A DNA stretch of 64,000 bases from a bacterium (lineage in GTDB: Bacteria > UBA8248). The notes beneath the pieces were generated by a model that was given only the letters and a program-made list of their open reading frames with translations, had not been told where the DNA came from and ran no database searches. Below, in pieces: positions 14,688-60,056 of the stretch (position 1 is the first letter of the stretch; each line of letters begins with the position of its first letter). Both the position numbers and the translations under genes were made by a program. The stretch spans positions 2,720,001-2,784,000 of the forward strand of contig OZ244799.1 in the NCBI GenBank assembly GCA_965219955.1, in the 5' to 3' direction.

Positions 14688-14888
14688 AACAAACATATAA
14701 ATCAAATCACCCGGCATGTCAATCGTTCGACTGGCCACGCCCGGATGGCATAACCGACTGATAATACTTGATTAAATAACATATCTTTCGAATTTCCCCT
14801 CTTGCGTTTTCGTCATATTTATGCTTGAATACGCTCTCGTTTGACGTCGCTTGTATGCGATTTGATTACATATTTGTCCGGAGGACAC

Positions 14889-39007: not shown

Positions 39008-41143
39008 ATGAAAAAGGAGAACCGGATGACCATCGGAAACGCCACCTTGCGCGGCGGCCAGACGCTCCTGCACGACGCCCGCATGTGGGGCCAGCTGGCC
39101 CGCTGGGGCATCGTGGGTCTCGTACTCGCCATCGTCCTGACGCCTGCCGTCAGCGTCCTGAGGTCGACGAGCACGCACGAGTGGCGCGTCGTGGGGCTCG
39201 GCACGCTGGCCGAGGCCAAGCTCGCGATCGGCTATTCCCCCGATTCGGGCCAGGTGTACGAGTGGGGCGCGGGCGTGCGGACCGTGGAGCGGATATCTCT
39301 CATCGCAAGCGATCCCAGGATCGAGCGGATCAGGAGGCGCCTGCTCGATACTATCTATAAAAAGGCGTGGCTGGGCCTCTGGCTCGGCCTGGGCGGCGTG
39401 GCCCTGTTCGCCTTCTTCTTCTGGCTGCTGGGCAGGCGAATGGCGAGGGCGCACCGGGTGCGGGGTGCGGAGATGACGTCGGCGCAGGCGCTCGGGAGGC
39501 GCGTCCGGCCCCTCTCCTCCCGCCTGGCGGAGAAGTTCTTCCAGAAGGCGCGCAAGTCCAGGCCCCGTATCGCGGGCGTCCCCTGGCCCGAGCGCGCCGA
39601 GACCCAGCACACCATCGTCTCGGGCACCACGGGCTCGGGCAAGACCGTCCTGATCTCGGACCTGGTCGCGCAGATCAGGGAACGGGGCGAGCGCTGCATC
39701 CTCTACGACAAGATGGGGAGCTACACGCGGGCGTTCTTCGACCCCGCCCGCGACGTCCTGATGAATCCCCTCGACGCCCGGGCGCCGCGCTGGTCCCCCT
39801 TCCTGGAAGCCAGGACGCCCAGGGACTTCGACACGATGGCGGCGGCCCTGATACCCCAGCAGAAGGACACGGTGGACCCCTTCTGGGTCACGGCCGCGCG
39901 GCAGCTGTTCGCGAACGGCGCGGGCGTCCTGTGGAAGCGCGGCGTGAGGGAGAACCGGATACTCGTCGAGCACCTGCTCAAGACCGAACTCACCTCCCTG
40001 GCCGAGGCCATGGAGGGCACGGTGGCGCAGTCCATCGTGGACCCCGAGAACCCCAAGACGGCGCTCTCGGTGCGCGCCATGCTGACCGCGCACCTGGGCG
40101 CGCTCGAGTGCCTGCCCGACTCGGGAAAACCCTTCTCGATAAGGGAGTGGGTGGAGCGCGAGGACGAGACCGGCTTCTTGTTCCTGACCTCGCGCGGGGA
40201 CCAGCACGCGAGCCTCCGGGGCCTCATCTCGACCTGGCTAGAGATCGCCGTGAACGCGCTCTTATCCCTCGGCCGGGACGACGCGCGCAGGATATGGATT
40301 GTGCTGGACGAGCTTCCCACCCTCCACCAGGTGCCGAGCCTGCAGCCCGGTCTCGCCGAATCACGCCAGTTCGGGGGGTGCTTCGTGCTGGGTATCCAGG
40401 TGATATCGGCCCTTCGCGACCTCTATGGGCGAAACGGGGCCGAGACCGTATCGGGCCTGTGCGGCACCCGGGTGGTGCTGGCCGCGCCCGACCAGGAGAC
40501 GGCGCGCTGGTCGGCCGAGAGCCTCGGGCGCGGAGAGGTCACAGAATACGCGGAGGGCCTGAGCTACGGCGCGAGCGCCATGCGCGACGGCGTCTCGCTC
40601 ACGCAGCGCCGCGAGATGCGGCCCCTCGCCCTGCCTTCCGAGATCATGCGCCTGGAAAACCTGCACGGCTACCTCAAGTTCCCCGGTCCCTGGCCGGTGG
40701 CCAGGGTAGAGCTCGACTACGTCGGGAGACCCGAGGCGGCTGCGGGTTTTATTCCGCGCGAGGGCGTGAAGCTCATCGATACGGAAGAAATGAACGCCGC
40801 TCCGCCCAAGACCAAAAATGGCGCGGGAACCGAAGCGCCCGGGACCGTGGACGCTCCCGCCGATAAAGAGAGAGGTGCGGCCGGCGAGGCGGCGAACCGG
40901 CGGGAACCCGAATCGCCCGGCGATACGACCGCATCCGGTGAAGCGGAGGCTAAGTGTGAACGACCCGCTCCGCCGCCGGACGCAGGCCTGGCAGAACCCG
41001 AGCAAACCTCCGAGAAATCCGTGGCGCCGCAACCCGCGGTCCACTCCGCGGATGGGGATGACGCCGGTGCGGCCGATGACGATGAGCAAAACCGGGGCGA
41101 AGACGGCGAAGAGGCCGGGTCCCGAACGCCGGACTGGTTGTGA
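39008..41143 (+). CDS. traD: Type IV coupling protein (TraD/TrwB family)
   Basis: N-terminal TMs, GTTGSGKT, LYDKMG, MNPLDAR..WS, LDELPTL, ESRQFGG, acidic disordered tail. Confidence 0.93.
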   Translation: MKKENRMTIGNATLRGGQTLLHDARMWGQLARWGIVGLVLAIVLTPAVSVLRSTSTHEWRVVGLGTLAEAKLAIGYSPDSGQVYEWGAGVRTVERISLIASDPRIERIRRRLLDTIYKKAWLGLWLGLGGVALFAFFFWLLGRRMARAHRVRGAEMTSAQALGRRVRPLSSRLAEKFFQKARKSRPRIAGVPWPERAETQHTIVSGTTGSGKTVLISDLVAQIRERGERCILYDKMGSYTRAFFDPARDVLMNPLDARAPRWSPFLEARTPRDFDTMAAALIPQQKDTVDPFWVTAARQLFANGAGVLWKRGVRENRILVEHLLKTELTSLAEAMEGTVAQSIVDPENPKTALSVRAMLTAHLGALECLPDSGKPFSIREWVEREDETGFLFLTSRGDQHASLRGLISTWLEIAVNALLSLGRDDARRIWIVLDELPTLHQVPSLQPGLAESRQFGGCFVLGIQVISALRDLYGRNGAETVSGLCGTRVVLAAPDQETARWSAESLGRGEVTEYAEGLSYGASAMRDGVSLTQRREMRPLALPSEIMRLENLHGYLKFPGPWPVARVELDYVGRPEAAAGFIPREGVKLIDTEEMNAAPPKTKNGAGTEAPGTVDAPADKERGAAGEAANRREPESPGDTTASGEAEAKCERPAPPPDAGLAEPEQTSEKSVAPQPAVHSADGDDAGAADDDEQNRGEDGEEAGSRTPDWL

Positions 41144-43947
41144 TGGTCGTCTCGATCGGCGCCGTCGCCGCCCCCGCCCAGGGCGCCTCCTACTACGAGC
41201 GCGACGGCTATTACGCCAAAGACGATCCCGCCCACAGGGAGGTGAGCGCATGGGCCGGCAGGGGAGCGGAGGACCTCGGCCTCACGGGTACGGTAGACCC
41301 CGATACCTTCCGCGCAGTTCTGGAAGGCCATGTGCCCGACGGTTCGGGGAGAAAGCTCGGGCGCAGGCGCAAGGACGGCGTCCTGGAGCACCGGCCCGGA
41401 CGCGACCTCACCTTCTCGGCTCCCAAGTCCGTCTCGCTCGCCGCGCTGGTGGGCGGCGACGCACGCGTCGTCGAGGCGCATGACCGGGCGGTCGAACGCA
41501 CCCTCGCCTGGGTCGAGGGCAACGCCGCCGAGACCAGGATCAAGGACCCGGAGACGGGACGCATGGTCCGGGCCGGGGATCAGAAAACGGTGGCCGCGAC
41601 CTTCCGTCACGACGCCTCGCGCAACCTCGACCCCCAGCTTCACACCCACGCGGTGCTGGCCAACATGGTCCGGGGGCCGGACGGGAAATGGAGGACGATG
41701 TCCAACGAGGCGCTCTACCGCAGCCAGAAGCTGATCGGCATGCTCTACAGGAGCGAACTGGCGCAAGGGCTGGGGAAGCTGGGCTACGCGATTGAGAAGA
41801 CGCACGCCGACGGGCGGTTCGAGGTTGCGGGCGTTCGCCGCGAGGTGATCGAGGCGTTCTCGACCCGGCGGGCGGAGATCGAGGCGGCGATGGCCGAGCG
41901 GGGTCTGGGAACGACGGCTGCGAACCAGCGCACAGCCGAGCGCGCGGCGCTCATGACCCGCGCCCGCAAGCGTGACGTGGACAAGTCCGCGCTCAGGGGT
42001 TTGTGGGAGAAACAGGCCGCGGACCTCGGGTTCGACGCCAGGGCCCATGCGGCCGAAGCAGTGTCCCGGGTCGCCGGCCTTGAAGGCAAAGGAGAGGCCC
42101 GGGAGACCGGTCCGGCCGGAGAGGCCGTCGAATGGGCCGTGTCGCATCTCGCGGAGCGCGAGGCCGTGTTCGCCCGCGCCGACGCGCTTGCCGCCGCGCT
42201 GGCCTGGCGGCCGGGCGCGGTGTCTGTCGAGGCGGCGGAGAGGGCGCTCCGCGATCTCGAAAGGGGGGGACGGCTTCACCCCGCGCCGGGGTTGCACGGG
42301 AGAGACGACCTGGCGACCGACAAGGCGCTGGCGGACGAGCGTGAGACGATCGGCCTGATGCGCGACGGCCAGGGCCGGGGCCGGGTGGCGATGCGCAGCT
42401 GGATCGCGCAGGCGTATCTGCACAAGGGAGCGCTGACGCAGGGCCAGAGAGAAGCGGTCAAACTCATCCTCTCGACCAGGGACCGCGTCGTCGGCGTGCA
42501 GGGCTATGCCGGGACCGGCAAGACCACCATGCTCAACCGCGCCCGCGTGTTACTGGAAAAACGCGGGTTCGAGGTCAAGGGCCTTGCGCCCTCGGCCTCG
42601 GCGGTCAAGACGCTCGGAACCGAGGCCGGGATCGAGAGCGAGACGCTGCAGCGTTTCCTCGCGCGAAACGCCGGCGTGGCCGGGGAAAGGCTCACCAGAA
42701 AGGCCGAGAAGCAGATGCGCGCAGCCTGGAGCAAGACGGTACTCGTGGTGGACGAAGGCTCCCTCGCCTCCACCCTGCAGGCCCGCGACCTCCTGCGGGT
42801 CGCCCGCGCCCTGCGCATCCCCAGAGTCGTGCTGGTGGGCGATGAGAAACAACTCGGAGCCGTGGACGCCGGCAAGCCCTTCGCGCAACTGCAGCAAGCC
42901 GGCATGAAGACCGCCGTGATGGACGACATCCTCCGCCAGCGCGACCCGGATCTGAAAGCCGCGGTCGAGGCGAGCCTCGCCGGCGAGATCGGACGCGCGT
43001 TCGAGAAGCTGGGATCCAACGTCGCGCAGGTGAAGGCCGACAACATCGCGGGCGCGGTGGCGGCGCGCTGGCTCGCGCTCTCGCCCGAGGCGCGCGAGAA
43101 CACAGGCGTCATGGCGCCCAGTCATGAACTTCGCCAAAAGATCAACGCCCATATACGGGAGCGTCTCGCGCGCGATGGCAGTATCCACGGCCCCGCCTTC
43201 AGGTGCGAGCGGCTCGTCTCTCGCGGTTATACGAACCCCGAGAAATCACTCGCCGCGAACTACGCCCCGGGTGACGTCGTGGCCTTCCACCGTCCCTACA
43301 AGCGCCTGGGCGTCGAGAAGGACGACGAACTCCGCGTCGCGGGCGTGGATCACGAGAACCAGGCGGTGGTGCTCGAAGGCAAGGACGGCGGGAGCGTCTT
43401 GTGGAAGCCCGGGCGGATCGCCGGGCGGTCGGGCGGCGCCGAGGTCTACCGGGCCGAAGGCATCGAACTTCGCTCCGGCGACCGTATCCGCTGGACCCGC
43501 AACGACAGGAAACTCGGGCTGGTCAACAGCCGGACTGCCGAGGTCACGGACGTGAGAGGCGACCGCGTGAGCTTCCGACTCGAAGACGGGCGCAGGCTTG
43601 AACTCAGGCAAGACGAGCCGCAGCTGCGCCACCTCGACCATGCCTGGGCCTCGACCGTGCACGCCTTCCAGGGCCGGACCGTCGACAACGTGATCGCCGC
43701 GATGCAGGCCAACCACCCCCACCTCACTACGCAGAAGAGCTTCTACGTCGAGATCAGCCGCGCCCGGGACCGGGCGGAACTCGTGACCGACGACGCAAAG
43801 GCGTTGCGCGAGCGGCTTGAAACGGCCACGGGCGAACGGGTTTCGGCGCTCGAGGGGATTGGTAGCAAGCCGAGGGTGGCGGAGAAGGAGAACGAAGCGC
43901 CGGGAATGGAGAGGAGGCGGGATGGGCGCGGGATGGAGATATCCTGA
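41143..43947 (+). CDS. MOB_F (TrwC/TraI-type) relaxase-helicase
   Basis: ASYYERDGYY tyrosines, DLTFSAPKS, HDASRNLDPQLHTH HUH motif, QGYAGTGKT helicase Walker A, VVDE, FYVEISRAR. Confidence 0.95.
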   Translation: MVVSIGAVAAPAQGASYYERDGYYAKDDPAHREVSAWAGRGAEDLGLTGTVDPDTFRAVLEGHVPDGSGRKLGRRRKDGVLEHRPGRDLTFSAPKSVSLAALVGGDARVVEAHDRAVERTLAWVEGNAAETRIKDPETGRMVRAGDQKTVAATFRHDASRNLDPQLHTHAVLANMVRGPDGKWRTMSNEALYRSQKLIGMLYRSELAQGLGKLGYAIEKTHADGRFEVAGVRREVIEAFSTRRAEIEAAMAERGLGTTAANQRTAERAALMTRARKRDVDKSALRGLWEKQAADLGFDARAHAAEAVSRVAGLEGKGEARETGPAGEAVEWAVSHLAEREAVFARADALAAALAWRPGAVSVEAAERALRDLERGGRLHPAPGLHGRDDLATDKALADERETIGLMRDGQGRGRVAMRSWIAQAYLHKGALTQGQREAVKLILSTRDRVVGVQGYAGTGKTTMLNRARVLLEKRGFEVKGLAPSASAVKTLGTEAGIESETLQRFLARNAGVAGERLTRKAEKQMRAAWSKTVLVVDEGSLASTLQARDLLRVARALRIPRVVLVGDEKQLGAVDAGKPFAQLQQAGMKTAVMDDILRQRDPDLKAAVEASLAGEIGRAFEKLGSNVAQVKADNIAGAVAARWLALSPEARENTGVMAPSHELRQKINAHIRERLARDGSIHGPAFRCERLVSRGYTNPEKSLAANYAPGDVVAFHRPYKRLGVEKDDELRVAGVDHENQAVVLEGKDGGSVLWKPGRIAGRSGGAEVYRAEGIELRSGDRIRWTRNDRKLGLVNSRTAEVTDVRGDRVSFRLEDGRRLELRQDEPQLRHLDHAWASTVHAFQGRTVDNVIAAMQANHPHLTTQKSFYVEISRARDRAELVTDDAKALRERLETATGERVSALEGIGSKPRVAEKENEAPGMERRRDGRGMEIS

Positions 43948-44064
43948 ACGATTTCCGTGTCTTTTTGATGGAAAGGCAACCTTGAGGTGCTTCGAAACCT
44001 TACGCTTGACGAACGCCGGATTTGCCAACATAATTGTTTCCAACAATATTGCTGGAGGATTGCA

Positions 44065-45318
44065 ATGTCACTTAGGAAGGCGGGGTCGAACTGGGTAGAG
44101 GGGGAGCGGTTCTATGACCGCGAAACCGAACTCGAAGCGCTCATGGAGCGAGTGCAGGACGGGACCCATACGTTGCTGACCGCACAGCGGCGGATGGGCA
44201 AGACGAGTCTGGTTCGGGAATTGCTGCGGCGGCTGAAGGAAGAAGGCCGGTTCGATACGATCTTCGTCGATCTGGAGGCTGCCGACGCGCCGGAGGACGC
44301 CGTCGCCGAGATCGCGGTCCGGTCGACGTCTGCGCACAGCGCCTGGGAGCGGATCAAGTCCCGGTTTGCCAACGCTCTGCGGGAAGTTATCGACCGGGTA
44401 GACACGCTGAGCCTTTCGGACCTGCAGGTGAAACTGCGCGCCGGTATCGACAGCGGAAACTGGCGTCAAAGAGGCGACGAGGTATTCTCAGCTCTCGCCG
44501 GGAATGACCGGCCGGTAGTCCTCGCAATCGACGAGTTACCGATACTCGTCAATCGCTTGCTCAAGGGACAAGACTATATCGTCACACCTGAACGAAAACA
44601 GGCGGCGGACGGGCTCATGAGCTGGCTTCGAAAGAACGGCCAAGAGCACAAAGGCCGGATCACGCTGCTCCTCTCTGGCAGCGTGGGACTGGAGCCGATT
44701 CTGCAGCAGGCCGGACTCAGCGCCCATGCGAACATCTTCTCCCCGTTCGACCTCAAGCCCTGGAGCCGTGAAATCGCCTCGAACTGTCTCGCTGCTCTGG
44801 CGGAGACATATTCTCTCGACCTTTCACCGGAGGTGCGGCGAGATATGTGCCGCCGACTCCGGTGGATGGTCCCCCACCATGTTCAGCAGTTTTTCGATTG
44901 CCTTCACGAGCACCTGCGACGCGCTGGGAGAAACAAGGCTTCCTTGGAAGACGTGGAACTCGTGTATGCCGGCGACATGCTCGGAACGCGTGGACAGGCA
45001 GATCTCGATCATTACGAAGGCAGGTTGAAGACGGTTCTTGGGGCCGACCTCTATCGGCTCGCGCTCGAACTGTTGACCGAGGCGACGGCACATGACGGCA
45101 AGCTGGGTGACGAGGCCGTTGAGCAGTACCGGCGACATTTCCCCGCTCCGGACGATGCCGGCCGCCCGTTGGTCGAGGGTGTGCTGCACGTTCTCGAGCA
45201 TGACGGATATCTGGAGCGGCGAGACGATGGCTACCGCTTCCTCTCCGGTCTGCTTGAGGACTGGTGGCGCGCCCGCCACGGTGGCAGTTTCATTCCCATC
45301 GGCCGGCGTCTGCTCTGA
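44065..45318 (+). CDS. P-loop ATPase (archaeal-ATPase/STAND-like), stand-alone
   Basis: GGAGG RBS. FYDRETE, Walker A AQRRMGKTS, Walker B LAIDE, GSVG, C-terminal wHTH-like LEHDGYL...YRFLSGLLEDWW. Confidence 0.85.
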   Translation: MSLRKAGSNWVEGERFYDRETELEALMERVQDGTHTLLTAQRRMGKTSLVRELLRRLKEEGRFDTIFVDLEAADAPEDAVAEIAVRSTSAHSAWERIKSRFANALREVIDRVDTLSLSDLQVKLRAGIDSGNWRQRGDEVFSALAGNDRPVVLAIDELPILVNRLLKGQDYIVTPERKQAADGLMSWLRKNGQEHKGRITLLLSGSVGLEPILQQAGLSAHANIFSPFDLKPWSREIASNCLAALAETYSLDLSPEVRRDMCRRLRWMVPHHVQQFFDCLHEHLRRAGRNKASLEDVELVYAGDMLGTRGQADLDHYEGRLKTVLGADLYRLALELLTEATAHDGKLGDEAVEQYRRHFPAPDDAGRPLVEGVLHVLEHDGYLERRDDGYRFLSGLLEDWWRARHGGSFIPIGRRLL

Positions 45319-45333
45319 ACGGGAGGCGAAAAG

Positions 45334-48300
45334 ATGAACGCCGTCGCCAGAAAATACAATCCGGGGTTTCTTTCCGACGAGGAGATCGTGGCATCGTTCT
45401 GCGTTCGGACGAGCGAGTTCGAATCGATCGTCGAGATGCTGCGTGAATGCACCGAAAGTTCAAACCCGCACCAGCTCGTGATCGGCCCGCGCGGTAGCGG
45501 AAAAACCAGTCTGCTCCTTCGCGTCGCGGCCGAAATACGGCGCGATGCCGCGTTGGCGTCGAGGTTCTTCCCGATCGTCTTCGCCGAGGAGAGTTATGAG
45601 GTTTCCACCGCCGGGGAGTTCTGGCTGGAATGCCTCTCCCGCCTGGTCGTCCAAGCTCCGCGCAGGGAGGGCGGTCCAGATCTGCATCGTGCCCATGATG
45701 AGCTGAGTAAAGTTTCCGACGACTGGACGCTTGGGGAGCGCTGCCTCGGCGCGCTGCTCGATTTTTCGGATCGCGAGGGCAAGCGGCTCGTGCTGCTCGT
45801 GGAGAACCTGAACGCGATGTTCCGGGACATGACGGACCCGGACGCGGGATGGCGGCTTCGAAAAGTCCTTCAGAACGAGCCTCGGATTGTCCTGCTCGCT
45901 AGCGCGACGAGCAGGTTCGAGCAAATCGACGATCCCGAGCAGGCCCTGTACGACCTATTCCGAACAACCTCGCTTCGCCCTCTGGAAACGGAGGAATGCG
46001 CTGTTTTGTGGAAAACCGTCTCCGGACGGGAGCCGCGGAGGGAGACGATCCGGTCCTTGCGTATCCTCACGGGCGGCAACCCCAGGTTGTTCGTGATCGC
46101 GGCCCGTTTCGGAGCCGGCCTGTCCTTTCGCTTACTGATGGCGGATCTGCTCGACCTTGTCGATGACCACACCGAGTATTTCAGGAGCCATCTCGAATCG
46201 CTGCCGCCGCAGGAAAGGCGAGTCTATCTGGCGCTCGCCGATCTGTGGAAGCCGGCGACTACGAAGGAGATCGCGGACCGGGCCCGGCTCGATACGAACA
46301 GGTGCAGCGCGCAACTCGCCCGCCTCGACGAACGGGGCATCGTGGAGGTCGCGGGAGGCACTGCACGGCGCAAGCAGTATTATCTAACCGAGCGCATGTA
46401 CAACATCTACTATCTGCTGCGTCGCCCCCGAGGGCCGGACCGTCTGGTCGATTCGCTAATCCGTTTCATGGAATCGTTCTACTCACCGCGTGAATTGCGC
46501 GACATCGGGGTCGGAATCGCCCGCGAAGCAAAGAACCTCGATGGGGAGATGCGAGTGTTGCACGAGACCGCATTCGCAAATCTGCTGGCGTTGCCGGCGC
46601 TGGCCGAGCATCGGATGGAACTGCTTGAAATGTTTCCCATGGATGTATCGGGAATTTCTTCCCAAGGCCCGGCGTTTCCAGACGGAACGAAACCGGGGTG
46701 GAGCGGCGCGGAAACGTCTCCCCTGAACAAGGTTCCGGTTCACTCTGGTTCGGACGGGTCCCCGGAGGCTATCGCTCAAAAACTCCTCGAAAAAGGCGCC
46801 GCGCTAAGCGGGCAAAACCGATCGGAGGAGGCCCTCGAGGTCTTCGACGAAGTGCTCAGCCGGTACGGGGCGAGCAAGAAGCCTGCCCTTATCGATTCGA
46901 CTGCCAAAGCCCTCCTCAGAAAGACGGAAGCATTCTGGATGTTGAAACGTTTCGAATATGCGGTTGAGGCTTGCGAAGAGGTCGTGCGTCGATACGGGTC
47001 GGTCGAGGCGCCCGCTCTCCGTGAAACGGTCGCGTTGGCCATGTCCAACAAGGGGATCGCGCTTCGTGAACTGAACCGGCCGGAAGAAGCGCTGGCCGCC
47101 CACGCCGAGGTCGTGCGCCGGTACGGGGCGAGCGAAAACCCGGACGTTCTCGTGACGGTCGCTAAGTCGCTTTGTGAGAGAGGACTCATGCTGGGCAGGA
47201 TGTCCCGGTTTCAGGAAGCGCTCGCGGTGAGTGACGAAATGAAACGTCGATTTGGAGAACACAAGGCAACGAACATCGTCATACATGTCGCCAAGAACCT
47301 CTGCGACAAGGGGACGATACTGAACAACCTGAATCGTCCGGAAGAAGCGCTGGCGGTATATGACGAAGTAGTGCGCCGATATGGGGCGATCGACGATCCG
47401 ACTCTGCATGAGATAATCGCGATAGCCCTCCTCAACAAGGGTGCAACGCTCGGCGACCGGGATCGACCCAAGGACGCTCTCGCCACCTTTGAGGAGGTGA
47501 TGCGCCGCTTCGGGACGAGCAAGGAACCGGCCATTGTCGCCTCGGTCGCGTTGGCCATGTCCAACATGGGGTTCTCTCTGAGCGTATTGGAGCGAACAGA
47601 GGAAGCCATGGCGACGTATGACGAGATTGTGCGCCGATATGAGACGAGCGATCAATCGAACGTTCTCGAGGTGGTCGGAAAAGCGCTTCTCAACAAGGGG
47701 AAGGTGCTCGACACTTCAAACCGCCCGAAGGAAGCATTGGCGGTCTTCGACGAAATTCTTGCTCGCTTCGGAGCGGATGTGGCGCCCGGCCTTCGCGAAA
47801 CGGTCGCGACGGCTCTGTGCAACAAGGGCATCGCGCTCGGCAATTCCGGCAGACACGAAGAAGCAATAGTGATCTATGACGAGGCGGTTCGACGTTTCGG
47901 AGCCTCTGTGGAACTCGTGCTTGTCGAGATGGTCACGAAATCCCTCCTCAACAAGGGCTACGCGCTCGGCGCGTTGAATCGGCCGGAAGAGGCGCTGGCG
48001 TCTTATGATGAAGCGATACGTCATCCCGAAGAGATTGTGAAACCATCCATTCTTGCGCTGGTTGCGCATGCTCTCGTCAAGAAGGGTCTCACGCTTGTCG
48101 GCCTGACGAGACTTGAGGAGGCCCTGTCGAGTTATGACGAGGCGATACGTCGATTTGGAACGAATGGCGATTCTTCCGTATTTGGGCTGGTCGCGCAGTC
48201 TTTTCTCAACAAGGGCGTTGCTTTAGCCTCCCTGAGCCGTTTTGAGGAGGCGCTCGAAGCCTGTGACGAAGTGGTGCGCCGTTATGGAGGAAGCGAGGCG

Positions 48301-50049
48301 AACAGCCTTCGCGAGACGGTCGCGAAAGCCCTCGTCAACAAAGGACATATTCTTCTCGCGTCGACTCGACCGAAGGAGGCCCTGTACGTCTGTGACGAAG
48401 TGGCGCGGCGTTTCGGGGAAAGCGACGCGCCGGTTCTGGTTCACATGGCGGTGGACGCCTTACATCTCAAAGGCGACGCTCTCTTGGGGTTGAATCGGCC
48501 GAACGAAGCGCTCACCGCTTTCGATGAGTCGTTGCGCCGCTCTGAAGGAGCCGAGGAAACAGCCGTTCCAGGTCTCGTGGCGAATGCTCTTCTTGGCAGA
48601 GGGCTCGCCTACGACAGGTTAAACCGGCCCGACGAAGCGCTGGCGGCTTTCGAGGAAGTCGTGCGCCGGTTCGGAGAAAGTGAGACCCCGCTCGTTGGCG
48701 CTGCGGTCACTGTGGCGCTGACGGTGAAAGTACCCCTGCTCGACAGCGCCGACCGGCACCGGGATGCTCTGGACGCGCACGAAGAGCTGGTGCGGCGTGT
48801 GGGTGAGGAAGCGCCCGAGTATCATGAGTTGATTGAACGCTCCCTAATCGGGAAAGCGGATTTCGAGCTGGTCTGCGGAAGGCATGAATCGGCGATCGAA
48901 GCGGCAGAGACGGCGCTTGGGAAATGTCTTCCCGCATCGGTGGAAAACCGGTTGCGGGCTCACTTCATCCGCGCGAAGGCGGCCCTCGCTGGCGGCGATG
49001 CACCCGGATGCGAGCGGGACATCGAGACGATCCTCAAGGAGCTTCCGGACCTTGGGAGTATTCCAAAGGAGCACCTTCATGCATTGATGGAGTTCGGCAT
49101 CCGACTCGGACCGGAGCGAATGCGGGAGCTTATCGAGGTTTCCCCTTCGGCGGATCTCCTTTTGCCGCTCACGACCGCGCTGGCGCAGGAAACGGGAGAG
49201 CGGCCCCGGGTGGCCCGGGAAGTGGAGGAAGTCGCCCGAGATATCCGAAAGGAACTACAAGCACTGGGGAAAAACGCTGGCGATCGAAACCGATATCCGG
49301 ATGATGACGAACACATAAGGACACAGCTGCGAACCAGCGGGATAATCATCAGGGACAAGAAAAATCGGGTGCTGCCGATAAGAAAGGACCCGGTTCGGTT
49401 GGCGGTGGTGGGCAAAAAAGGTGAAAAATCGAATTCCTGGAAAATCTGGATGGAAAAAGATGGTGAAATATATTTTTCAATCCGGGACAACAATCCTGGA
49501 TTCAAAGTGAGTTTACATAAATCCGGAAAGCAGCACATTAAAATGGGAAGTAAGTATTGGGGACAATGGTTCGAACCTGATATCTATGCAGGACCGATGA
49601 TTGCGACTTCGGCCAAATTGGTTTTCCCGGCCTGGGGAATGAGAGAAGCTGAAAGAATGAGCGAAGAAGACAAGGATATCTGGGAGGGTAACGAGATAGA
49701 AATAGAGGCGCCCGAAGAAGGGAGACTGATTACGCTCAAAGCGTTCATCAGAGTGGAGGGCCAGAGGCTGAGGCAAGTAGACGGAAAAAGTGAAACATTG
49801 GCGATATGGCGGCGTGAGGACGGAAAGGAAGCGCATTTGATCGTCTGCGAAGAAGCCGAAAGAAATATGAAAGATGTCGTGAAAAGGGTATTGGAAAACA
49901 AGGCGTTTCTCACGAATATCAAGGAAAATATGGGAGAGGATGCTTTGGATGAGGAACGGGCATTTACAGTAGCGATGGGAGGCCCGGCAGAAGAAGGGGG
50001 GAATTACGTGCTCACGGTTTCGGCGAAATTCAAGGCCGAAGAAGAATAG
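45334..50049 (+). CDS. P-loop ATPase-wHTH-TPR repeat protein with an additional C-terminal domain (1571 aa)
   Basis: YNPGFLSDEE, Walker A GPRGSGKTS, LLVENL, TGGNPR, wHTH, about 16 tandem 43-aa TPR-like repeats, then ~260 aa encoded by A-rich DNA. Confidence 0.88.
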   Translation: MNAVARKYNPGFLSDEEIVASFCVRTSEFESIVEMLRECTESSNPHQLVIGPRGSGKTSLLLRVAAEIRRDAALASRFFPIVFAEESYEVSTAGEFWLECLSRLVVQAPRREGGPDLHRAHDELSKVSDDWTLGERCLGALLDFSDREGKRLVLLVENLNAMFRDMTDPDAGWRLRKVLQNEPRIVLLASATSRFEQIDDPEQALYDLFRTTSLRPLETEECAVLWKTVSGREPRRETIRSLRILTGGNPRLFVIAARFGAGLSFRLLMADLLDLVDDHTEYFRSHLESLPPQERRVYLALADLWKPATTKEIADRARLDTNRCSAQLARLDERGIVEVAGGTARRKQYYLTERMYNIYYLLRRPRGPDRLVDSLIRFMESFYSPRELRDIGVGIAREAKNLDGEMRVLHETAFANLLALPALAEHRMELLEMFPMDVSGISSQGPAFPDGTKPGWSGAETSPLNKVPVHSGSDGSPEAIAQKLLEKGAALSGQNRSEEALEVFDEVLSRYGASKKPALIDSTAKALLRKTEAFWMLKRFEYAVEACEEVVRRYGSVEAPALRETVALAMSNKGIALRELNRPEEALAAHAEVVRRYGASENPDVLVTVAKSLCERGLMLGRMSRFQEALAVSDEMKRRFGEHKATNIVIHVAKNLCDKGTILNNLNRPEEALAVYDEVVRRYGAIDDPTLHEIIAIALLNKGATLGDRDRPKDALATFEEVMRRFGTSKEPAIVASVALAMSNMGFSLSVLERTEEAMATYDEIVRRYETSDQSNVLEVVGKALLNKGKVLDTSNRPKEALAVFDEILARFGADVAPGLRETVATALCNKGIALGNSGRHEEAIVIYDEAVRRFGASVELVLVEMVTKSLLNKGYALGALNRPEEALASYDEAIRHPEEIVKPSILALVAHALVKKGLTLVGLTRLEEALSSYDEAIRRFGTNGDSSVFGLVAQSFLNKGVALASLSRFEEALEACDEVVRRYGGSEANSLRETVAKALVNKGHILLASTRPKEALYVCDEVARRFGESDAPVLVHMAVDALHLKGDALLGLNRPNEALTAFDESLRRSEGAEETAVPGLVANALLGRGLAYDRLNRPDEALAAFEEVVRRFGESETPLVGAAVTVALTVKVPLLDSADRHRDALDAHEELVRRVGEEAPEYHELIERSLIGKADFELVCGRHESAIEAAETALGKCLPASVENRLRAHFIRAKAALAGGDAPGCERDIETILKELPDLGSIPKEHLHALMEFGIRLGPERMRELIEVSPSADLLLPLTTALAQETGERPRVAREVEEVARDIRKELQALGKNAGDRNRYPDDDEHIRTQLRTSGIIIRDKKNRVLPIRKDPVRLAVVGKKGEKSNSWKIWMEKDGEIYFSIRDNNPGFKVSLHKSGKQHIKMGSKYWGQWFEPDIYAGPMIATSAKLVFPAWGMREAERMSEEDKDIWEGNEIEIEAPEEGRLITLKAFIRVEGQRLRQVDGKSETLAIWRREDGKEAHLIVCEEAERNMKDVVKRVLENKAFLTNIKENMGEDALDEERAFTVAMGGPAEEGGNYVLTVSAKFKAEEE

Positions 50050-50109
50050 AAGGTACTTTGATAAGGTGGTCGCACTCTCGATATGACTAGCGGCAACCCT
50101 CGGTTGCGT

Positions 50110-50350
50110 ACGGGACGCTACGCCCGTCCCGTTCTCGTGGCCCTTCATGGAGGTGTTTGGGCTTGCGATCTAGAAGATTGCGCATCGGTGTAGCGCATCG
50201 CTAGGCTGCTTAATATGGACTTCGAGGATTTGGCGGATATCTTCGCAGTGCACGACATCCGATGCGCAATCATACTGCGATGCGCCATGTCCCGACTCCA
50301 AGGCGCCGTACTGGTAGATACCAACGACATACTGAAAGCCCACCAGACAA
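50110..50350 (+). pseudogene. Remnant of an ImmA/IrrE-like C-terminus and PIN-domain gene start
   Basis: Broken frames read PFSWPFMEVFGLAI*, RIARLLNMDFEDLADIFAVH and MSRLQGAVLVDTNDIL. Confidence 0.45.
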
Positions 50351-50469
50351 GATCGGGCCGGCCTCGCGTCGAGTGGTATTCGGGATGAACACTGCTTCTG
50401 TCTCGATCTTATTGGCGGTGCAGATCGTCCATGCGTTCGTGATCCGCGCGTCTGAGTACCAAGCCTGGA

Positions 50470-50765
50470 CGAAGCGCCGCCCGGCATCATCAAGGCGATC
50501 GAGACCTGCTTCACGCGCTCGGAGCGACGGCGGCCTACCAGATCCTTTCGCGCACCATCGCCCGGGAACTGGCCGAGGGAGTCTCTAGGGACTACGAGTC
50601 TGAACTGCCCGATACCGTGTCGTGCTTCCGCGGCGACTTCGAAGCCTGCATCTGGCCGACATGATCGCCGACGTGAGGTTCACCGATGGGGTGGACGTAA
50701 AAGAAACGGGTAGGAGGGCTGCTGGATTCAGGACGGCCATATACCAGATTTTACAGTAACTCCCA
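50470..50765 (+). mobile_element. IS256-family remnant with internal deletions
   Basis: Fragments PGIIKAIETCFTRS, AYQ..SRTIARELA...CF.GDFEACI and LADMIADVRFTDGV...RRAA, followed by the terminus-like CCATATACCAGATTTTACAGTAACTC. Confidence 0.55.
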
Positions 50766-50905
50766 ACCTCAATCTACATTGGCAAAGAAATGTGGTAGCA
50801 GGTATGGTCTGAATCAAGGATTTCATGAGCCCGCCCCAGAAGCTATTCGAAAAACTATGGCCTGTTTTCGGATTAACTTCTTTCTGAATCGGTGTTGGGT
50901 ATAGT

Positions 50906-53752
50906 ATGAATAAACAACGCAATCGCGAAGAAGTGGTTAACACGCAACTTGCGTTATTGATCTCAGAACTCGGCGTCACAGCGGACGCTGAAACGATTCA
51001 AGTTCATGGTAAGCACCGTCCCGATGTCTTGTTCCAACTTCGCGGCTTGCGAATTGTCATTGAAGGTAAATTCCAAGATACGCCGAACGCCGAACAAGTC
51101 GTTCTGGACGATGCTCGAAAACGAGTTTGCGCGGGCATTGCGCATATTGCGGCCGCGACTGTTTATCCTGATCAATTACGAACAACCCCAACTACCAAGA
51201 TAATTGATACCTTGACAGATGCGCGACTTCGTTATCGGCTCGTTACTGAAACTTTCGAGAGTGAAAATTGGTTCGAAGGAAATCCCGCATCACTGATGGA
51301 GGCCCTCCGCAGAGCACAAGAGTCACTTACACAAAACGACATAGTTGAAAAAACAGCCAAAGCGCTTTCGATTCACCTTGAAAGCATCTCGAAGCTCTGG
51401 ATTGGTCAACCTGGCTCCTGCGACCGCCTGTCGAGATTGTTAGGAACTCCCATCCCGATAAATGAAAAGCCGAAAGCAACATCCGAAAGGCGTGAAACTA
51501 CTGCAAAGGTGTCGGCTCTCGTGCTGGCGAACGCTTTCATATTCCAAGAGCAGTTGGCATTAAATGATGAGCGCGTAGATACACTTCGGAAATTAGCGAA
51601 GAATGACGACATTATTGAAGCTACATCGGAACATTGGCGCTGGATTTGGGAAAACATAAACTACACTCCCATCTTCCAGCTTGGGGAACGTATACTTGAT
51701 GAACTACCAGCATTTGCAGGCACTACCAGGATTGTTCAATCTCTCCTCGACGCAGCACAAAAAATCTGCACCGAACAAGCTGCATTGCGTCATGACCTGA
51801 TGGGACGAATTTATCACTGGTTGCTCCACGACGCAAAATATCTTGGCACGTACTATACATCTGTCCCGGCGGCGACTCTGTTGTTGAAAGTTGCTCTGGA
51901 TCTCAAGTGGCCTCATGACTTCGGTAGTGCTCGGGAACTTGCGGACTTCAAAGCCGCAGATCTCGCATGTGGTACTGGAACTCTACTTATGGCCGCCGCA
52001 CAAGCCCTCACCGACAATTTTATTAAAACTCGCGCAGGGGACGACCGAAGCATCGATACGAAAGACTTGTCTGTACTTCATAGTACACTGATGCAAAATG
52101 TCGTCCACGGATATGACATACTGCCGTCTGCGGTACACCTGACAGCATCGACCCTCGCTCTGCTCGCCCCAGAGGTCGCGTTTCGGCAAATGAACCTGTT
52201 CGTTATGCCTGTTGGTATGGATCACGGGAACGCGCGACTAGGTAGCCTAGATTTTCTTTCCGGCAGTGAGATTAAAACACAATTTACTCTGGACAACACT
52301 CACTTAGACACTGTTAGAACAGGGGCAGCAGAATCCGCATTTACTAATGCCCAAATTCCTAATCTTGACCTTTGCGTCATGAATCCACCCTTCGTCAGTA
52401 GCCGTTACGGAAATCGGCTTTTCGGCTCACTGCCAGAGGATAGACCCAAACTCCAGAAAGCACTCTCGAAAGAGGCCAAGAAAATCGGTATCCACACGAC
52501 CGCTGGACTTGGCGCTTTATTCGTTCCGTTGGCAGACAAACACACGAAACCAGGTGGCCGTATTGCGTTCGTTCTGCCAATAGCTCTCGCAACCGGAGAA
52601 GCGTGGGGTCCTGTTCGGAAGTTTATAGTCGAACGATATCATCTCGAAGTCGTCATCACGAGCCACGATCCGTTACGCACCAATTTCTCGGAAAACACTG
52701 AATTATCTGAACTTTTATTCATGGCCCGTAAGCTGAAGCGTGGCGAAAAGGCTGGTTCCACCTACTATGTCAAATTGCGTCGAAATCCCGCCACTATTCA
52801 CGAAGCCCTTGACCTTGCAGATCGAATTTCGACTGGAATCAAGAAGATAAGCGATCAGAATAAACCTGTAACTATTCGCTCTGCGGCAAGAGTTTTGGGG
52901 GAGATCGCAAACCTTCCTAGACCGCATAACAAAGACAATTGGACGAGCGCTATATTCTATCAACATTATCTATTCCAAGTTCATTGGGCACTGGACAAGA
53001 ATTCACTTTTGTCAATCCCCGGCGAATTATCGCAACAACCCATTCCACTTTGTCGTCTCGATGCTCTAGGCGAACTTGGCTATGACGTTCGAGATATTTT
53101 TGACGCCTTTGATGTTGACCGGTCTGCGTCACAGTGGACTCCTTATCCTGCATTTTGGAACCATGACGCCAAACGGGTGTTTCAAATCACCCAAGCGCCA
53201 AATGCTTTCCTAATATCTCGAACGAAGCCAATCGAAGGGCGCAAGCTCAAAAGCGCCACGGCGGTTTGGGCAAAGGCGGGCAAGATTCTATTGGTGTCAA
53301 GACTTTGGCCAATAACGCAAAAGGTGCTTGCTACTGGTTTCAACACAAAAGTGCTTGGCAATACTTGGTGGGCCTTCGATACCGCAAATCTTTCCATCAA
53401 ACAGAGCCAAGCACTGTTACTTTGGATGAACTCAACGCTTGGCTTGCTATTCTACTATGGGAGAAGAGCAATAACCCGAAGTGCTTGGATGCAGATGAAG
53501 AAACCCGCATGGGAATCAATGTTGGTGCTAGACGTTCGGAATTTGAACACAGAACAACTCGATATGCTGTCCACGACTTATAAAATCGTGTCGAAAGAAA
53601 CCTTGCAACCACTCGCACAACTCGACTGCGATCCGGTTCGAATTCAAATTGATGAGGCTCTCTGCAAAACACTCGAATTGCCATCACTCAATCCGATCCG
53701 TGAACTTTTGGTTCGAGAACCTGGCCTTACCGGGTCAGATTCAGACGCCTGA
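50906..53752 (+). CDS. Type IIG-like fused restriction endonuclease / N6-adenine methyltransferase
   Basis: N-terminal RPD...IEGK (PD-D/ExK), GTYYT, DLACGTGT (SAM binding), MNPPF catalytic motif. AT-rich. Confidence 0.85.
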   Translation: MNKQRNREEVVNTQLALLISELGVTADAETIQVHGKHRPDVLFQLRGLRIVIEGKFQDTPNAEQVVLDDARKRVCAGIAHIAAATVYPDQLRTTPTTKIIDTLTDARLRYRLVTETFESENWFEGNPASLMEALRRAQESLTQNDIVEKTAKALSIHLESISKLWIGQPGSCDRLSRLLGTPIPINEKPKATSERRETTAKVSALVLANAFIFQEQLALNDERVDTLRKLAKNDDIIEATSEHWRWIWENINYTPIFQLGERILDELPAFAGTTRIVQSLLDAAQKICTEQAALRHDLMGRIYHWLLHDAKYLGTYYTSVPAATLLLKVALDLKWPHDFGSARELADFKAADLACGTGTLLMAAAQALTDNFIKTRAGDDRSIDTKDLSVLHSTLMQNVVHGYDILPSAVHLTASTLALLAPEVAFRQMNLFVMPVGMDHGNARLGSLDFLSGSEIKTQFTLDNTHLDTVRTGAAESAFTNAQIPNLDLCVMNPPFVSSRYGNRLFGSLPEDRPKLQKALSKEAKKIGIHTTAGLGALFVPLADKHTKPGGRIAFVLPIALATGEAWGPVRKFIVERYHLEVVITSHDPLRTNFSENTELSELLFMARKLKRGEKAGSTYYVKLRRNPATIHEALDLADRISTGIKKISDQNKPVTIRSAARVLGEIANLPRPHNKDNWTSAIFYQHYLFQVHWALDKNSLLSIPGELSQQPIPLCRLDALGELGYDVRDIFDAFDVDRSASQWTPYPAFWNHDAKRVFQITQAPNAFLISRTKPIEGRKLKSATAVWAKAGKILLVSRLWPITQKVLATGFNTKVLGNTWWAFDTANLSIKQSQALLLWMNSTLGLLFYYGRRAITRSAWMQMKKPAWESMLVLDVRNLNTEQLDMLSTTYKIVSKETLQPLAQLDCDPVRIQIDEALCKTLELPSLNPIRELLVREPGLTGSDSDA

Positions 53753-54107
53753 GGAAGGTGTTGCAGCAATGAATGAAACCGATTTCGAATTGGTTCGGGG
53801 AAGCGGAAACGTCTTTTGAAATATCAGCGACCCTCATGCGGATTTAAAGTATGCCAAAGTGGTGCTCGACGAACGAAATTTCATGGTACTAAGGCCGCGA
53901 GCATGATCGGATTAATCTCAGCGGATTTCTCGTATAAGCAACACGGCTCTCGGGGGCTCACATTAGCTCGGCTTATGATTCTTCGCTACTGTGGACAGTT
54001 CTCTCTCAGGCTGGCCTCAAAGAAACTATCTGGGATCAAATCACTACTTCTTTAGTATATCCGGACAGTGTTCTGAGGTGCCCGAAGAAAAACAGCGCGT
54101 GAAAAAC

Positions 54108-57444: not shown

Positions 57445-57520
57445 TGTAATACTCCTTCATGGTGTGAGTGAGAAAAAGTGACGGGAGAGAGAGCCTTTCT
57501 CTCCACCCCCCCGGTTCGCC

Positions 57521-57646
57521 CTACACGCTGCAAAACTCCTCCTCGCCCCCCGTCTCTTCGCGTATCTTGCGGATCGTGTACGCGTCGAGCCCGAGTTCTG
57601 CGAGCAGTTCGTCCGTGGTGGGAACGTCGACGTCATTCTCGTACAT
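57521..57646 (-). CDS. Acidic 41-aa microprotein, cassette copy 2
   Basis: AGGAGG RBS. MYENDVDVPTTDELLAELGLDAYTIRKIREETGGEEEFCSV*. Confidence 0.8.
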   Translation of the reverse strand: MYENDVDVPTTDELLAELGLDAYTIRKIREETGGEEEFCSV

Positions 57647-57852
57647 GGCCAGGCCTCCTGTCGGGGTTGTCGCCGGCACGGGAGGGAGACCGTCTCCCTC
57701 TCCCCTCCGGGCGTATCGCCCGGCTCCCCGCTTCCCTCTACCTCTCCCGTGGAGGTCCTCATCCGGTGAGGAACGTTCGCCGACACTCCCGGGACTTGCC
57801 TTTGCCGTGGATTCGTGTCAGACAGCGCGCGGACATGAGGAAGGGAGGAGGT

Positions 57853-58308
57853 ATGGAACGACTCCGGTTCCGGATTCCGGCGCTGTTGTGGCTGCCGGCG
57901 GGGATTGTCACCGAAGAGGTTCTGCGCACGGGGTCCGCGCAGGGGATGATGACACTGCTCGCCGCCCCGGAGTTGCTGTCCGCAGCAGCGTGCGGCGTCC
58001 CGCTCGCGCTCGCCTGCAGGCGTCTTTCCCGCTCGGGGTATCCAGGCCCCGCCCTGGTGGCGTGGTTGCTGCTCGGCGCCGCCGCAATGGTGAGCTTCGC
58101 CGGTGCGTTCCCCGCAGGCGTTCAGGCGGTACTGGCCTCCCTTCCGGTATGGGCCGTGGTATGGCGTCTCGAGCGGCGGCCGAGCCGGCTGGAATTCGCT
58201 CCCTCGTCCGAATGGCGCGGGCGCGGAGGTTCGCTCGCCCGGTTCATGCTGCGTGCGTTGAGCGCTCCCGAAGCCCCCCGCCGATACCGCCTCCGGCGGA
58301 CCTCCTGA
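57853..58308 (+). CDS. Small membrane protein, cassette copy 2
   Basis: GGAGGAGG RBS before ATG 57853. Paralogue of 34008..34367. Confidence 0.7.
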   Translation: MERLRFRIPALLWLPAGIVTEEVLRTGSAQGMMTLLAAPELLSAAACGVPLALACRRLSRSGYPGPALVAWLLLGAAAMVSFAGAFPAGVQAVLASLPVWAVVWRLERRPSRLEFAPSSEWRGRGGSLARFMLRALSAPEAPRRYRLRRTS

Positions 58309-58408
58309 CGGCGCCGGGCCGGCTGCGGAGCAGGGCGGCGGCGTACCCTCCCCCCGGCCCGTTCCCCCCGCCGGCGGCCGGCCGGCTACACGTGTGACGG
58401 CAGCCCGG

Positions 58409-59591: not shown

Positions 59592-60056
59592 CGCGCGCCT
59601 CCTTTACGGGGTGGATGGGGGCGGCGGGAACGAGCCTCTCGCGGACTCTCCCCCCGCCGCCCCCTCCCGGCCAGGCTCCGCCTCTTTCCGGCGCGAAGCG
59701 AGTTTTTCAAGGGGCGTGCGCGATGAACGACCGCCCGGTCCCCGGGGCGTTCGCCGCCATGTGAGGCGCGCTGCCATACTGATAACCATCTCCGGGACTT
59801 GCGCCGTTATCACCCCGCCAGCGAAAGATAACGACAAGGTCGTCAGTGATACTTGAGCTGTAGAAAACGATGACTTTCCAGAGAAACAAGGCACGCTATA
59901 AGCTCATCTGGAATATGCGAAGCCTGTTGCCCGATACCGGGGTTCTCCTGTAAATTCGCCCGTTGTTCGTGAGGTATTCAAGAATCGGATATGCCCCGTG
60001 CATCGACTCAGCGTAGTGCCTGAATCGAATTGATGCGCCCGAAAGAAATAATGGTA

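Follow-up and report, generated by a model that had tools for sequence, protein, structure and literature searches.

A candidate two-component STAND/NLR-like sensor encoded by a probably mobile operon of two NTPase genes

In the STAND sensors of bacteria known as Avs1-21 and bNACHT, a P-loop NTPase is followed by a helical or winged-helix region and an extended TPR-like sensor; sequence change is faster in the sensor than in the NTPase, and the genes are mobile, with a patchy distribution. In plants, paired sensor/helper NLRs are encoded by two linked NTPase genes, of which one is variable (the sensor) and one conserved (the helper or executor). A fold consisting of an AAA+ core, a lid and a C-terminal winged helix is found in Orc1/Cdc6 and in the archaeal ATPase_2 (PF01637) proteins PAB2304 (2qen) and SSO1545 (2fna); we know of no function assigned to either of the latter two. 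Lee et al. 2026 (PMC13581612) distinguish 589 STAND clades, and a term search of six of its supplementary files, covering all but the largest tables, gave 0 occurrences. Passages of PMC7159879, PMC12839542 and the preprint 10.64898/2026.10.19.760177 treat other ORC/STAND-containing systems. A keyword literature search on STAND/TPR proteins, CD-NTase fusions, PF01637, ORC-CDC6 and symbiont NTPases returned no description of the gene pair considered here.

The pair, genes A and B, lies in a 64,000-nucleotide stretch of contig OZ244799.1, referred to in full as the window. Its features are as follows.

44006..44034, + strand: sigma-70-like promoter candidate upstream of gene A (TTGACG-17-CATAAT, 10/12)
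44065-45318, + strand: gene A, 417 aa; predicted ORC/Cdc6-like AAA+ ATPase (ATPase_2 family) with C-terminal winged helix
45334-50049, + strand: gene B, 1571 aa; P-loop NTPase, probable wHTH, TPR-like repeats and C-terminal domain
45334..46533, + strand: N-terminal module of gene B (residues 1-400); P-loop NTPase, helical region and probable wHTH
46768..48831, + strand: TPR-like array of sixteen 43-aa repeats (residues 479-1166), in register
48832..49203, + strand: helical cap (residues 1167-1290), the end point of most homologues; LLLPLTTALAQE...PRVAREVEEVARDIR
49204..50049, + strand: subfamily-specific C-terminal domain (residues 1291-1571) and stop codon; beta-rich, candidate output domain

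Open reading frames and their translations bore out the coordinates and motifs of both genes as originally predicted, together with the 15-nt gap between the end of gene A (45318) and the ATG of gene B (45334). GGAGG precedes the start of each gene. The promoter candidate is a consensus match only: the region scanned contains six such sites where 2.2 would be expected. The spacing, the GGAGG motifs and the promoter candidate are putative signals of an operon; no RNA runs containing the stretch are listed, which has no bearing on expression either way.

Protein A contains the motifs TAQRRMGKTS and VLAIDELP. Walker A K46 and Walker B D156-E157 are among the invariant residues in an alignment of its homologues. 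Pfam matches to AAA_16 (34.7 bits; cut-off 32.6) and ATPase_2 (34.0 bits; cut-off 33.2) were both marginal passes. The AF2 model of the protein (pLDDT 95.5) retrieved the archaeal ATPase_2 structures 2qen and 2fna as top Foldseek matches (prob 1.00; E 6e-11 and 3e-10, respectively; TM normalized to target 0.65), followed by Orc1/Cdc6 bound to DNA, and a profile search also matched protein A to 2qen (E 4.5e-9). The Pfam match and the modeled core, lid and winged helix assign protein A to the ATPase_2/ORC-Cdc6-like class, its predicted fold being that of an ORC/Cdc6-like AAA+ protein with a C-terminal winged helix. Protein A differs from PAB2304, SSO1545 and Orc1/Cdc6, however, in being only 13-16% identical to them, bacterial, always paired with B and without a link to replication origins. 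Its family comprises 1,919 representative clusters when the threshold is E<=1e-3, of which 261 remain at E<=1e-30. With A as the query, a single longer protein was found, a B-like TPR protein whose beginning covers 25% of A; A and B are therefore almost always separate proteins.

Inspection of protein B reveals a second P-loop NTPase, with the motifs GPRGSGKTS and KRLVLLVENLN and no domain ahead of the P-loop. Residues 22-160 match AAA_16 (39.8 bits; cut-off 32.6), and the ORC-CDC6-like model was matched at 27.0 bits (cut-off 27); scores for nSTAND1 and nSTAND5 fell short of the cut-off. In the homologue alignment, the Walker A residues G51, P52, R53, G54, G56, K57 and T58 each reach at least 90% conservation across 46 sequences, and at the Walker B position an invariant E157 is followed by N158 in at least 90%. 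These features, both Walker motifs included, place B among the P-loop NTPases of the STAND/ORC-Cdc6 branch; a profile search of solved structures gave no significant relative of the N-terminal module. The presence of E-N rather than D-E at Walker B suggests a nucleotide-bound switch and not a motor. The winged helix is probable, as judged from a TrmB-like match at residues 293-349 (E 6e-5; 23.2 bits, under the 25.6 cut-off) and MarR/SlyA profile matches (E 0.025-0.06). Of the N-terminal domains originally predicted for protein B, then, the P-loop stands, and the winged helix is only probable.

The NTPase module is followed by sixteen repeats in perfect register, as against about 16 regular 43-aa TPR-like repeats in the original prediction, with self-identities of 0.376 at lag 43 and 0.388 at lag 86 compared with ∼0.1 at other lags. 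Pfam TPR_1 (E 2.5e-47) and TPR_12 (E 9e-38) match this array, which is thus a C-terminal repeat region of the superstructure-forming sensor type. A 129-nt period is also visible at the DNA level; Tandem Repeats Finder reported no DNA array in 46500-49300. The number of repeats varies among homologues of B.

The helical cap that closes the array is present in 107 of 143 homologues. Most of them lack the 281-aa C-terminal domain that follows it in the window copy, a domain overlooked in the original prediction. It occurs in 29 other clusters, every one of them fused to a B-like protein, and an alignment of the domain contains 65 invariant columns. No Pfam, PADLOC or usable Atlas match was obtained for it; its AF2 model is poor (pLDDT 57.2), and a wide VIA search gave a best Z of 3.8 and no chain at Z>=5. 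The domain may be the output domain of B. The absence of an effector, originally proposed for the N-termini of both proteins, holds for these only, because this conserved C-terminal domain is possibly the output. Most family members carry no recognizable effector.

Pairing of the two genes is nearly without exception. The N-terminal module of B lay directly downstream of A in 79/79 loci in a first scan and in 78/80 in a second, wider one, giving 157/159 related loci over both scans (143 unique loci after merging). In the two exceptions, the contig ends 124 nt past A or a partial B match lies 511 nt downstream. All five distant copies tested (39-41% identical) were paired as well. Conservation of the gene pair, which had been proposed as a check, is in this way confirmed. 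No third conserved gene adjoins the pair, the largest cluster of neighbors being found in 8 of 79 loci. Species-representative genomes contain at least 341 loci of the family. Its distribution is patchy and crosses phyla: A is present in 10 of 41 related genomes, and within the same genus the figure is 8 of 22 (G000 excluded from the counts), one of these copies being 82% identical and the others 40-43%. For copies in other phyla the identity is 56-82%. Most likely, A-B is a self-contained, horizontally mobile two-gene operon.

The two proteins evolve under different constraints. In all 40 close pairs listed, the part of B after the NTPase is less conserved than both A and the N-terminal module of B; outright swaps occur, as in L067/L068, where identity is 92.7% for A and 89.2% for the N-terminal module of B but 38.7% for the remainder of B. 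The dN/dS ratio of post-NTPase B (0.19-0.52) exceeded that of A (0.08-0.28) in 12 of 12 pairs, the ratio for the TPR part remaining below 1. Protein A is under strong purifying selection, and the repeat part of B is swapped between close relatives. The fast-evolving TPR part lends support to the ATPase-wHTH-TPR, STAND/NLR-like reading of B first proposed, the wHTH match being sub-threshold.

Genes surrounding the pair in the window are listed below, with the number of the 143 loci in which relatives were found.

35102..36403, + strand: tyrosine integrase (profile match), part of the context
36743..38170, - strand: SIR2-like protein (PADLOC Aga_SIR2 1e-17; Pfam below cut-off); 0/143 loci
39008..41143, + strand: type IV coupling protein (TrwB/TraD; profile match); 0/143 loci
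41140..43947, + strand: TrwC-type relaxase-helicase directly upstream of the pair (E 4e-85); 1/143 loci, a fragment
50906..53752, + strand: 948-aa protein with an N6-adenine MTase domain (Pfam N6_Mtase 2e-10); distant relatives in 2/143 loci

Neighbors of the pair in the window thus recur in only 0-2 of 143 loci. The last of them had been called a type IIG RM gene: its N6-adenine MTase domain is confirmed, and its type IIG and MAD2 matches are weak and partial (E ∼1e-8 to 1e-10). No att-like direct repeats were found within 33800-64000 and no tRNA genes in the window. Farther downstream, a Gabija reading of a GajB-like helicase (60030-63275) was set aside because the adjoining genes (57457-58464 and 58409-59218, both on the - strand) have no PADLOC match, GajA included.

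The pair was also compared with named defense systems. PADLOC-DB v2, which dates from 2023 and may lack newer system names, identified no named system, giving matches at the level of the P-loop only (mad8, E 2e-5 and 5e-5; PDC-S27 and PDC-S01, E>=7e-4), and NCBIfam r20 gave zero matches for A and zero above cut-off for B. The expectation that the pair is not a named defense system was upheld in these two collections. Neither protein matched the curated models of Avs, bNACHT, BREX BrxC/BrxD, MADS or other PADLOC/NCBIfam systems. In contrast to Avs and bNACHT proteins, B has no N-terminal effector, requires a separate second AAA+ ATPase as an obligatory companion and carries E-N at Walker B.

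A connection to immune signaling was found in four of the 143 loci (L050, L058, L076 and L140), in which B continues beyond its cap into a fused CD-NTase (E 8e-108 against PADLOC Cyclase for L050, the locus tested). The fused cyclase retains the GS...DxD motif and shares 65-87% identity with a stand-alone CBASS cyclase encoded at the same locus or a sister one, and the loci adjoin CapH, CapP, phospholipase and Cap2 genes of a type II CBASS operon with a CapV-like phospholipase. These fusions tie the family to immune signaling; being restricted to one Dehalococcoidia sublineage, they may be a local innovation. By contrast, 139 of the 143 members are without the fusion, the window operon lacks a CD-NTase, a Cap2 and an effector activated by nucleotides, and no cyclase or CBASS effector match was obtained for the window pair and its neighbors.

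Defense genes were no more frequent beside the pair than elsewhere. Matches to PADLOC at E<=1e-8 were obtained for 16 of 98 immediate neighbors and for 16 of 113 proteins in a matched control of 20 rule-chosen regions from ten of the same genomes, a comparison based on crude gene calls (greedy ORFs) and small samples, the neighbor count leaving out 31 of 68 “+1” and 5 of 66 “-1” genes that were mostly housekeeping or duplicates. Defense-gene enrichment was therefore dropped as an argument. The original prediction had expected defense-island enrichment and had named its absence beforehand as counting against a defense role; this expectation was not borne out.

The combined data point, with moderate confidence, to A-B as a two-component STAND/NLR-like sensor carried as mobile cargo and probably directed against phages or other invaders. 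The architecture of B also resembles the MalT/LAL STAND transcription factors in its AAA_16 NTPase and TPR-like sensor and, by analogy, perhaps in ligand-controlled switch behavior. Were A-B a non-immune pair of regulators resembling MalT, AfsR or GutR, the TPRs of B would sense a metabolite or protein, and both proteins would bind promoters through their winged helices and control genes in trans. We regard this as rather unlikely. It is consistent with weak TPR_MalT and BTAD matches in several homologues, with wHTH-like modules in both proteins, with the ordinary metabolic genes among many of the neighbors (PQQ dehydrogenase, aldo-keto reductase and PfkB), and with background levels of defense genes and the lack of an identified effector. 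Against it, no dedicated DNA-binding output domain, whether LuxR, OmpR or another type, was detected (a LuxR-type HTH is absent from B and from the 76 + 13 homologue C-terminal parts scanned), no conserved target gene lies nearby, and B differs from MalT/LAL proteins in having an obligatory partner ATPase. Patchy transfer across phyla, a swapped and fast-evolving sensor part, the CBASS-cyclase fusions in some relatives and the several paralogues in some genomes likewise argue against regulation of this kind.

An accessory or selfish function for the mobile element, such as a maintenance/addiction module, entry exclusion or a conjugation helper ATPase, appears more improbable still. The window pair directly follows the coupling protein and relaxase genes on an integrase-bearing island, a relaxase fragment lies immediately upstream of A at one further locus (L004), and cross-phylum transfer and ∼95-96% identical copies in contigs from other sequencing runs would fit such a role. 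Homologues of the relaxase, coupling protein and integrase nevertheless occur beside the pair at 0-1 of 143 loci, and many copies lie amid chromosomal housekeeping genes. Protein A had no match in plasmids (PLSDB, 72,556) at E<=1e-20 or in phages (50,697) at E<=1e-10, and the IMG/VR contigs scanned contained no relative of the family, so there is no evidence of a prophage or plasmid hotspot. Were B a “eukaryote-like” TPR protein through which host-associated bacteria interact with an animal, and A its chaperone, the enrichment of TPR proteins reported for such symbionts would fit, as would the occurrence of part of the stretch in runs labeled sponge metagenome and the recurring set of uncultured phyla to which the closest relatives belong. 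More distant copies, paired as well, come from MAGs of groundwater, fen and lake sediment and from cyanobacteria; these, together with an NTPase-wHTH-repeat order typical of cytoplasmic STAND switches, make this role highly improbable.

Under the preferred two-component sensor reading, B would be the receptor, its fast-evolving 16-repeat TPR array being the likely ligand-binding surface, and A the constant partner, a predicted hydrolysis-competent AAA+ protein that probably acts as executor or helper, its conserved target being, for example, DNA. We infer ligand sensing by the array and contact between A and B in the heteromer originally proposed; DNA as the target of A, and any immune phenotype, are likewise predictions. 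An output could be added at the C-terminus of B, where most family members carry none. In the four fused relatives, the CD-NTase would feed the neighboring CBASS phospholipase, making the pair plausibly a sensor that starts cyclic-nucleotide signaling, and in the window copy the same slot would hold the conserved 281-aa beta-rich domain. By analogy with plant paired NLRs, A-B consists of two linked NTPase genes, one variable and one conserved; unlike them, A has no repeat or known executioner domain, no ancestry is shared beyond the AAA+/STAND class, and contact between the partners is presumed. A bolder proposal, which we hold only tentatively and consider doubtful, is that A-B is the first bacterial “paired NLR,” in which a hydrolysis-impaired TPR receptor (B) would detect an invader protein and hand over to a near-invariant, separately encoded A; A would then assemble on DNA and stop the invader from replicating. 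Such a system could do without an enzymatic effector, and the C-terminal plug-in slot of B would be filled by a CBASS cyclase or by a new beta-rich output domain.

The control comparison carries a methodological point, namely that in these defense-rich genomes an adjoining defense gene is uninformative. The B-cyclase fusions offer a direct biochemical handle, since cyclic-nucleotide synthesis can serve as a read-out of sensor activation. The family is large and lies almost wholly in uncultured lineages unsampled by defense-discovery screens. If immune, it would add to bacterial NLR-like sensing a two-protein design in which a variable receptor is joined to a constant AAA+ partner, in most members without a classical effector.

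The original prediction described two adjacent ORFs encoding ATPases, the second with a winged helix and repeats, and both were found as described, in the following arrangement.

44006-44034: sigma-70-like site, TTGACG-17-CATAAT
44065-45318, + strand: A, 417-aa ORF
45334-50049, + strand: B, 1571 aa, with its ATG 15 nt past the A stop and GGAGG ahead of the start

The start codon of A was set by a GGAGG sequence 7 bases 5′ of it and by alignment to homologues opening MxLxKAGxNWV. Pfam analysis of A returned AAA_16 and ATPase_2, each barely over threshold. In B, AAA_16 was matched at residues 22-160 and TPR matches were strong; a TrmB-like winged-helix match at residues 293-349 fell under the Pfam threshold. 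The TPR-like array spans residues 479-1166 as sixteen repeats of 43 aa without a break in register, and the corresponding 129-nt period is also seen at the DNA level. B extends 281 residues past the usual end of its homologues, an extension absent from the original prediction.

Upstream, the pair is flanked by genes for a T4CP and a TrwC relaxase and, farther upstream, by a SIR2-like gene and an integrase. The original prediction had also noted the relaxase and a SIR2 protein; the downstream gene, there called a type IIG restriction-modification gene, encodes a 948-aa product that can be firmly assigned only as an N6-adenine methyltransferase-domain protein. Toward 48001-54000, G+C content falls from ∼0.61 at the operon start to 0.555 over the 3′ part of B and 0.48-0.51 over the methyltransferase gene, and this drop relative to the surrounding genome (0.60-0.71) shows a mosaic origin of the segment. 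A further tyrosine integrase, shorter than the first, is encoded 19 kb upstream of it (14841-15908, + strand). Pfam left most of the intervening ORFs unmatched, so the interval may be a second island. The window also encodes a 908-aa subtilase (29657-32383, − strand) and a 1081-aa UvrD-type helicase (60030-63275, + strand) that is GajB-like (PADLOC E = 3e-44), with an N-terminal region of ∼320 aa without assignment and two topoisomerase-type zinc ribbons at its C terminus. The ORFs adjoining this helicase (57457-58464 and 58409-59218, both − strand) gave no family match.

When species-representative genomes were searched with A, 79 loci were recovered from numerous phyla (56-82% identity), and in all 79 a homologue of the first 460 residues of B (57-80% identical) followed ∼20-35 nt after A. 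In a second scan, which used a divergent alignment and reached identities down to 44%, the N-terminal module of B was present within 400 nt of A in 78 of 80 loci, the exceptions being a contig that ends 124 nt past A and a partial B match 511 nt downstream. Pairing was also retained in five of five copies of 39-41% identity from relatives of the window's genome. The original prediction had proposed gene-pair conservation as a check, and these counts establish it. Removal of duplicates left 143 unique paired loci. No constant third gene was found (the biggest neighbour cluster covered 8 of 79 loci), the neighbours of the window's pair recurred in only 0-2 of the 143 loci, and A-B fusion proteins were essentially absent. 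At E ≤ 1e-3, 1e-10, and 1e-30, the A family as a whole comprises 1,919, 1,040, and 261 representative clusters, respectively, and species-representative genomes contain at least 341 loci.

The window's genome carries a single A-B copy. With this genome counted, A was detected at E ≤ 1e-30 in 10 of the 41 genomes of the relatives search; with it excluded, A was present in 8 of 22 genomes of the same genus. One same-genus copy is close to the window's A (82% identity) and the rest are 40-43% identical, such that the window copy is nearer to copies from other phyla than to those of most congeners. Some genomes hold 3 or 4 paralogues, and the entire operon was recovered at ∼95-96% identity in contigs from other sequencing runs. 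PLSDB plasmids, a phage collection, and IMG/VR yielded no member of the family. In three other runs, the summed contig depth over the 3′ part of the relaxase gene (43534-43800) reached hundreds to thousands, far above that of the A-B operon, which suggests that this segment is common to many related elements. At L004, a related locus in an alphaproteobacterial MAG whose B is divided into two frames and has the window-type C-terminal domain, an 82-aa fragment directly upstream of A (L004:7652-7891) is 54% identical to the C terminus of the window's relaxase.

The structure of A was predicted with high confidence (pLDDT 95.5, pTM 0.92), and the structures most like it were those of two archaeal ATPase_2 proteins (2qen and 2fna) and, next, of Orc1/Cdc6 initiators; a profile search agreed. 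The Walker A lysine K46, the Walker B residues D156-E157, and ∼10 further positions of A are invariant even at 30-64% identity. The N-terminal 400 residues of B are also strongly conserved. Its Walker B position carries hhhh-E-N (E157 is invariant, and N158 occurs in at least 90% of sequences). Here Glu stands in the place of the usual Asp, and Asn in that of the catalytic Glu. This substitution suggests that B would bind nucleotide with little hydrolysis. A sequence search for solved structures returned none significantly related to B.

Beyond residue 400, B shows lower conservation than A, and also than its own N-terminal module, in 40 of the 40 close pairs listed (A at least 92% identical). 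Repeat counts vary between close pairs, and in some the post-400 part is wholly exchanged: identities for A, the N-terminal module, and the rest of B are 92.7, 89.2, and 38.7% between loci L067 and L068, and 94.7, 83.5, and 41.5% between L058 and L065. By Nei-Gojobori estimation, ω ranged from 0.08 to 0.28 in A and from 0.19 to 0.52 in the repeat part of B, which exceeded A in each of the 12 pairs. In individual close pairs, L101/L103 among them, synonymous distance differed several-fold between A and B (e.g. 0.041 versus 0.284), which suggests recombination in the operon, with breakpoints inside the genes or between them.

Most B homologues end in a conserved helical cap, present in 107 of 143. 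Pfam analysis of 76 B C-terminal parts and of 13 from the most divergent loci revealed mostly TPRs alone, and in three of the 76 (L050, L058, and L076) a CD-NTase follows the cap. A fourth fusion, L140, came from the second scan and was recognized by similarity to the cyclase part of L050. The B-CD-NTase fusion loci are as follows.

L058:9269-17242
L076:9278-17236
L140:8264-15236
L050:9262-13091

The L050 cyclase, the one fusion submitted to PADLOC, matched Cyclase at E = 8e-108. In L058, L076, and L140, the fusion is followed by genes for CapH, CapP, a phospholipase effector, a stand-alone cyclase, and Cap2 (type II CBASS); in L050, Cap2 comes directly after the fused cyclase, as though the interval had been deleted. 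The fused CD-NTases are 65-87% identical to stand-alone CBASS cyclases and keep the GS...DxD motif, with the glycine-ending tail kept in L050 and missing in the other three. The window's own 281-aa C-terminal domain (residues 1291-1571) recurs in 29 other protein clusters, every one B-like, and is rich in invariant charged and aromatic residues; its invariant positions include H105, Q110-H111, E164/E166, and E216/E217. Its model was poor (pLDDT 57.2), and a fold search gave no match (best Z 3.8). In one Dehalococcoidia subgroup with a short B (∼700 aa), a 415-aa gene (L070:11373-12617) overlaps the B stop by 13 nt; it occurs also in L071, L073, L078, and L137, is broken in L069 and L079, and had zero Pfam or PADLOC matches. 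It is a candidate third component or output in these loci.

The original prediction did not recognise the pair as any named defence system, and the resources searched gave it no such name either. PADLOC-DB v2 matched A and B at the P-loop level only (mad8, E = 2e-5 and 5e-5), NCBIfam release 20 gave zero matches for A and zero over cut-off for B, and a keyword search of the literature revealed no description of such a pair. As far as the portions consulted extend, the ORC/STAND-containing systems of PMC7159879, PMC12839542, and a 2026 preprint differ from it. A 2026 STAND survey (PMC13581612) may include the clade of B; a term search of six of its supplementary files, exclusive of the largest tables, gave zero occurrences.

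Among 98 immediate neighbours of the pair, 16, in 15 loci, matched PADLOC profiles at E ≤ 1e-8, in a sample that leaves aside 31 of the 68 genes downstream and 5 of the 66 upstream, most of them housekeeping genes, near-duplicates, or continuations of the TPR region. Full-length matches included Dsr1, Dsr2, Drt4, JetA, Tiamat, and type IIG enzymes. The control, two 8-kb regions per genome picked by rule in ten locus-holding genomes (L166-L185, from G041-G050), gave 16 matches among 113 ORFs at the same threshold, in 11 of 20 regions, chiefly restriction-modification components (methyltransferases and specificity subunits), with SoFic seen twice. Locus-holding genomes are full of defence genes in general, and those beside the pair are not above this background. 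The defence-island enrichment whose absence the original prediction had named as counting against it is therefore lacking, and the usual guilt-by-association argument falls. A regulatory pair outside immunity, or a maintenance function for the mobile element that carries A-B, is a less probable alternative to an immune role. The anatomy, strict pairing, mobility, receptor-like evolution of the repeats, and cyclase fusions together make an NLR-like two-component sensor the best reading, and we give about even chances to its being immune. In such a sensor, B would act as both receptor and switch, with A as its conserved, ATP-hydrolysing partner and the C terminus of B as an optional slot for output.
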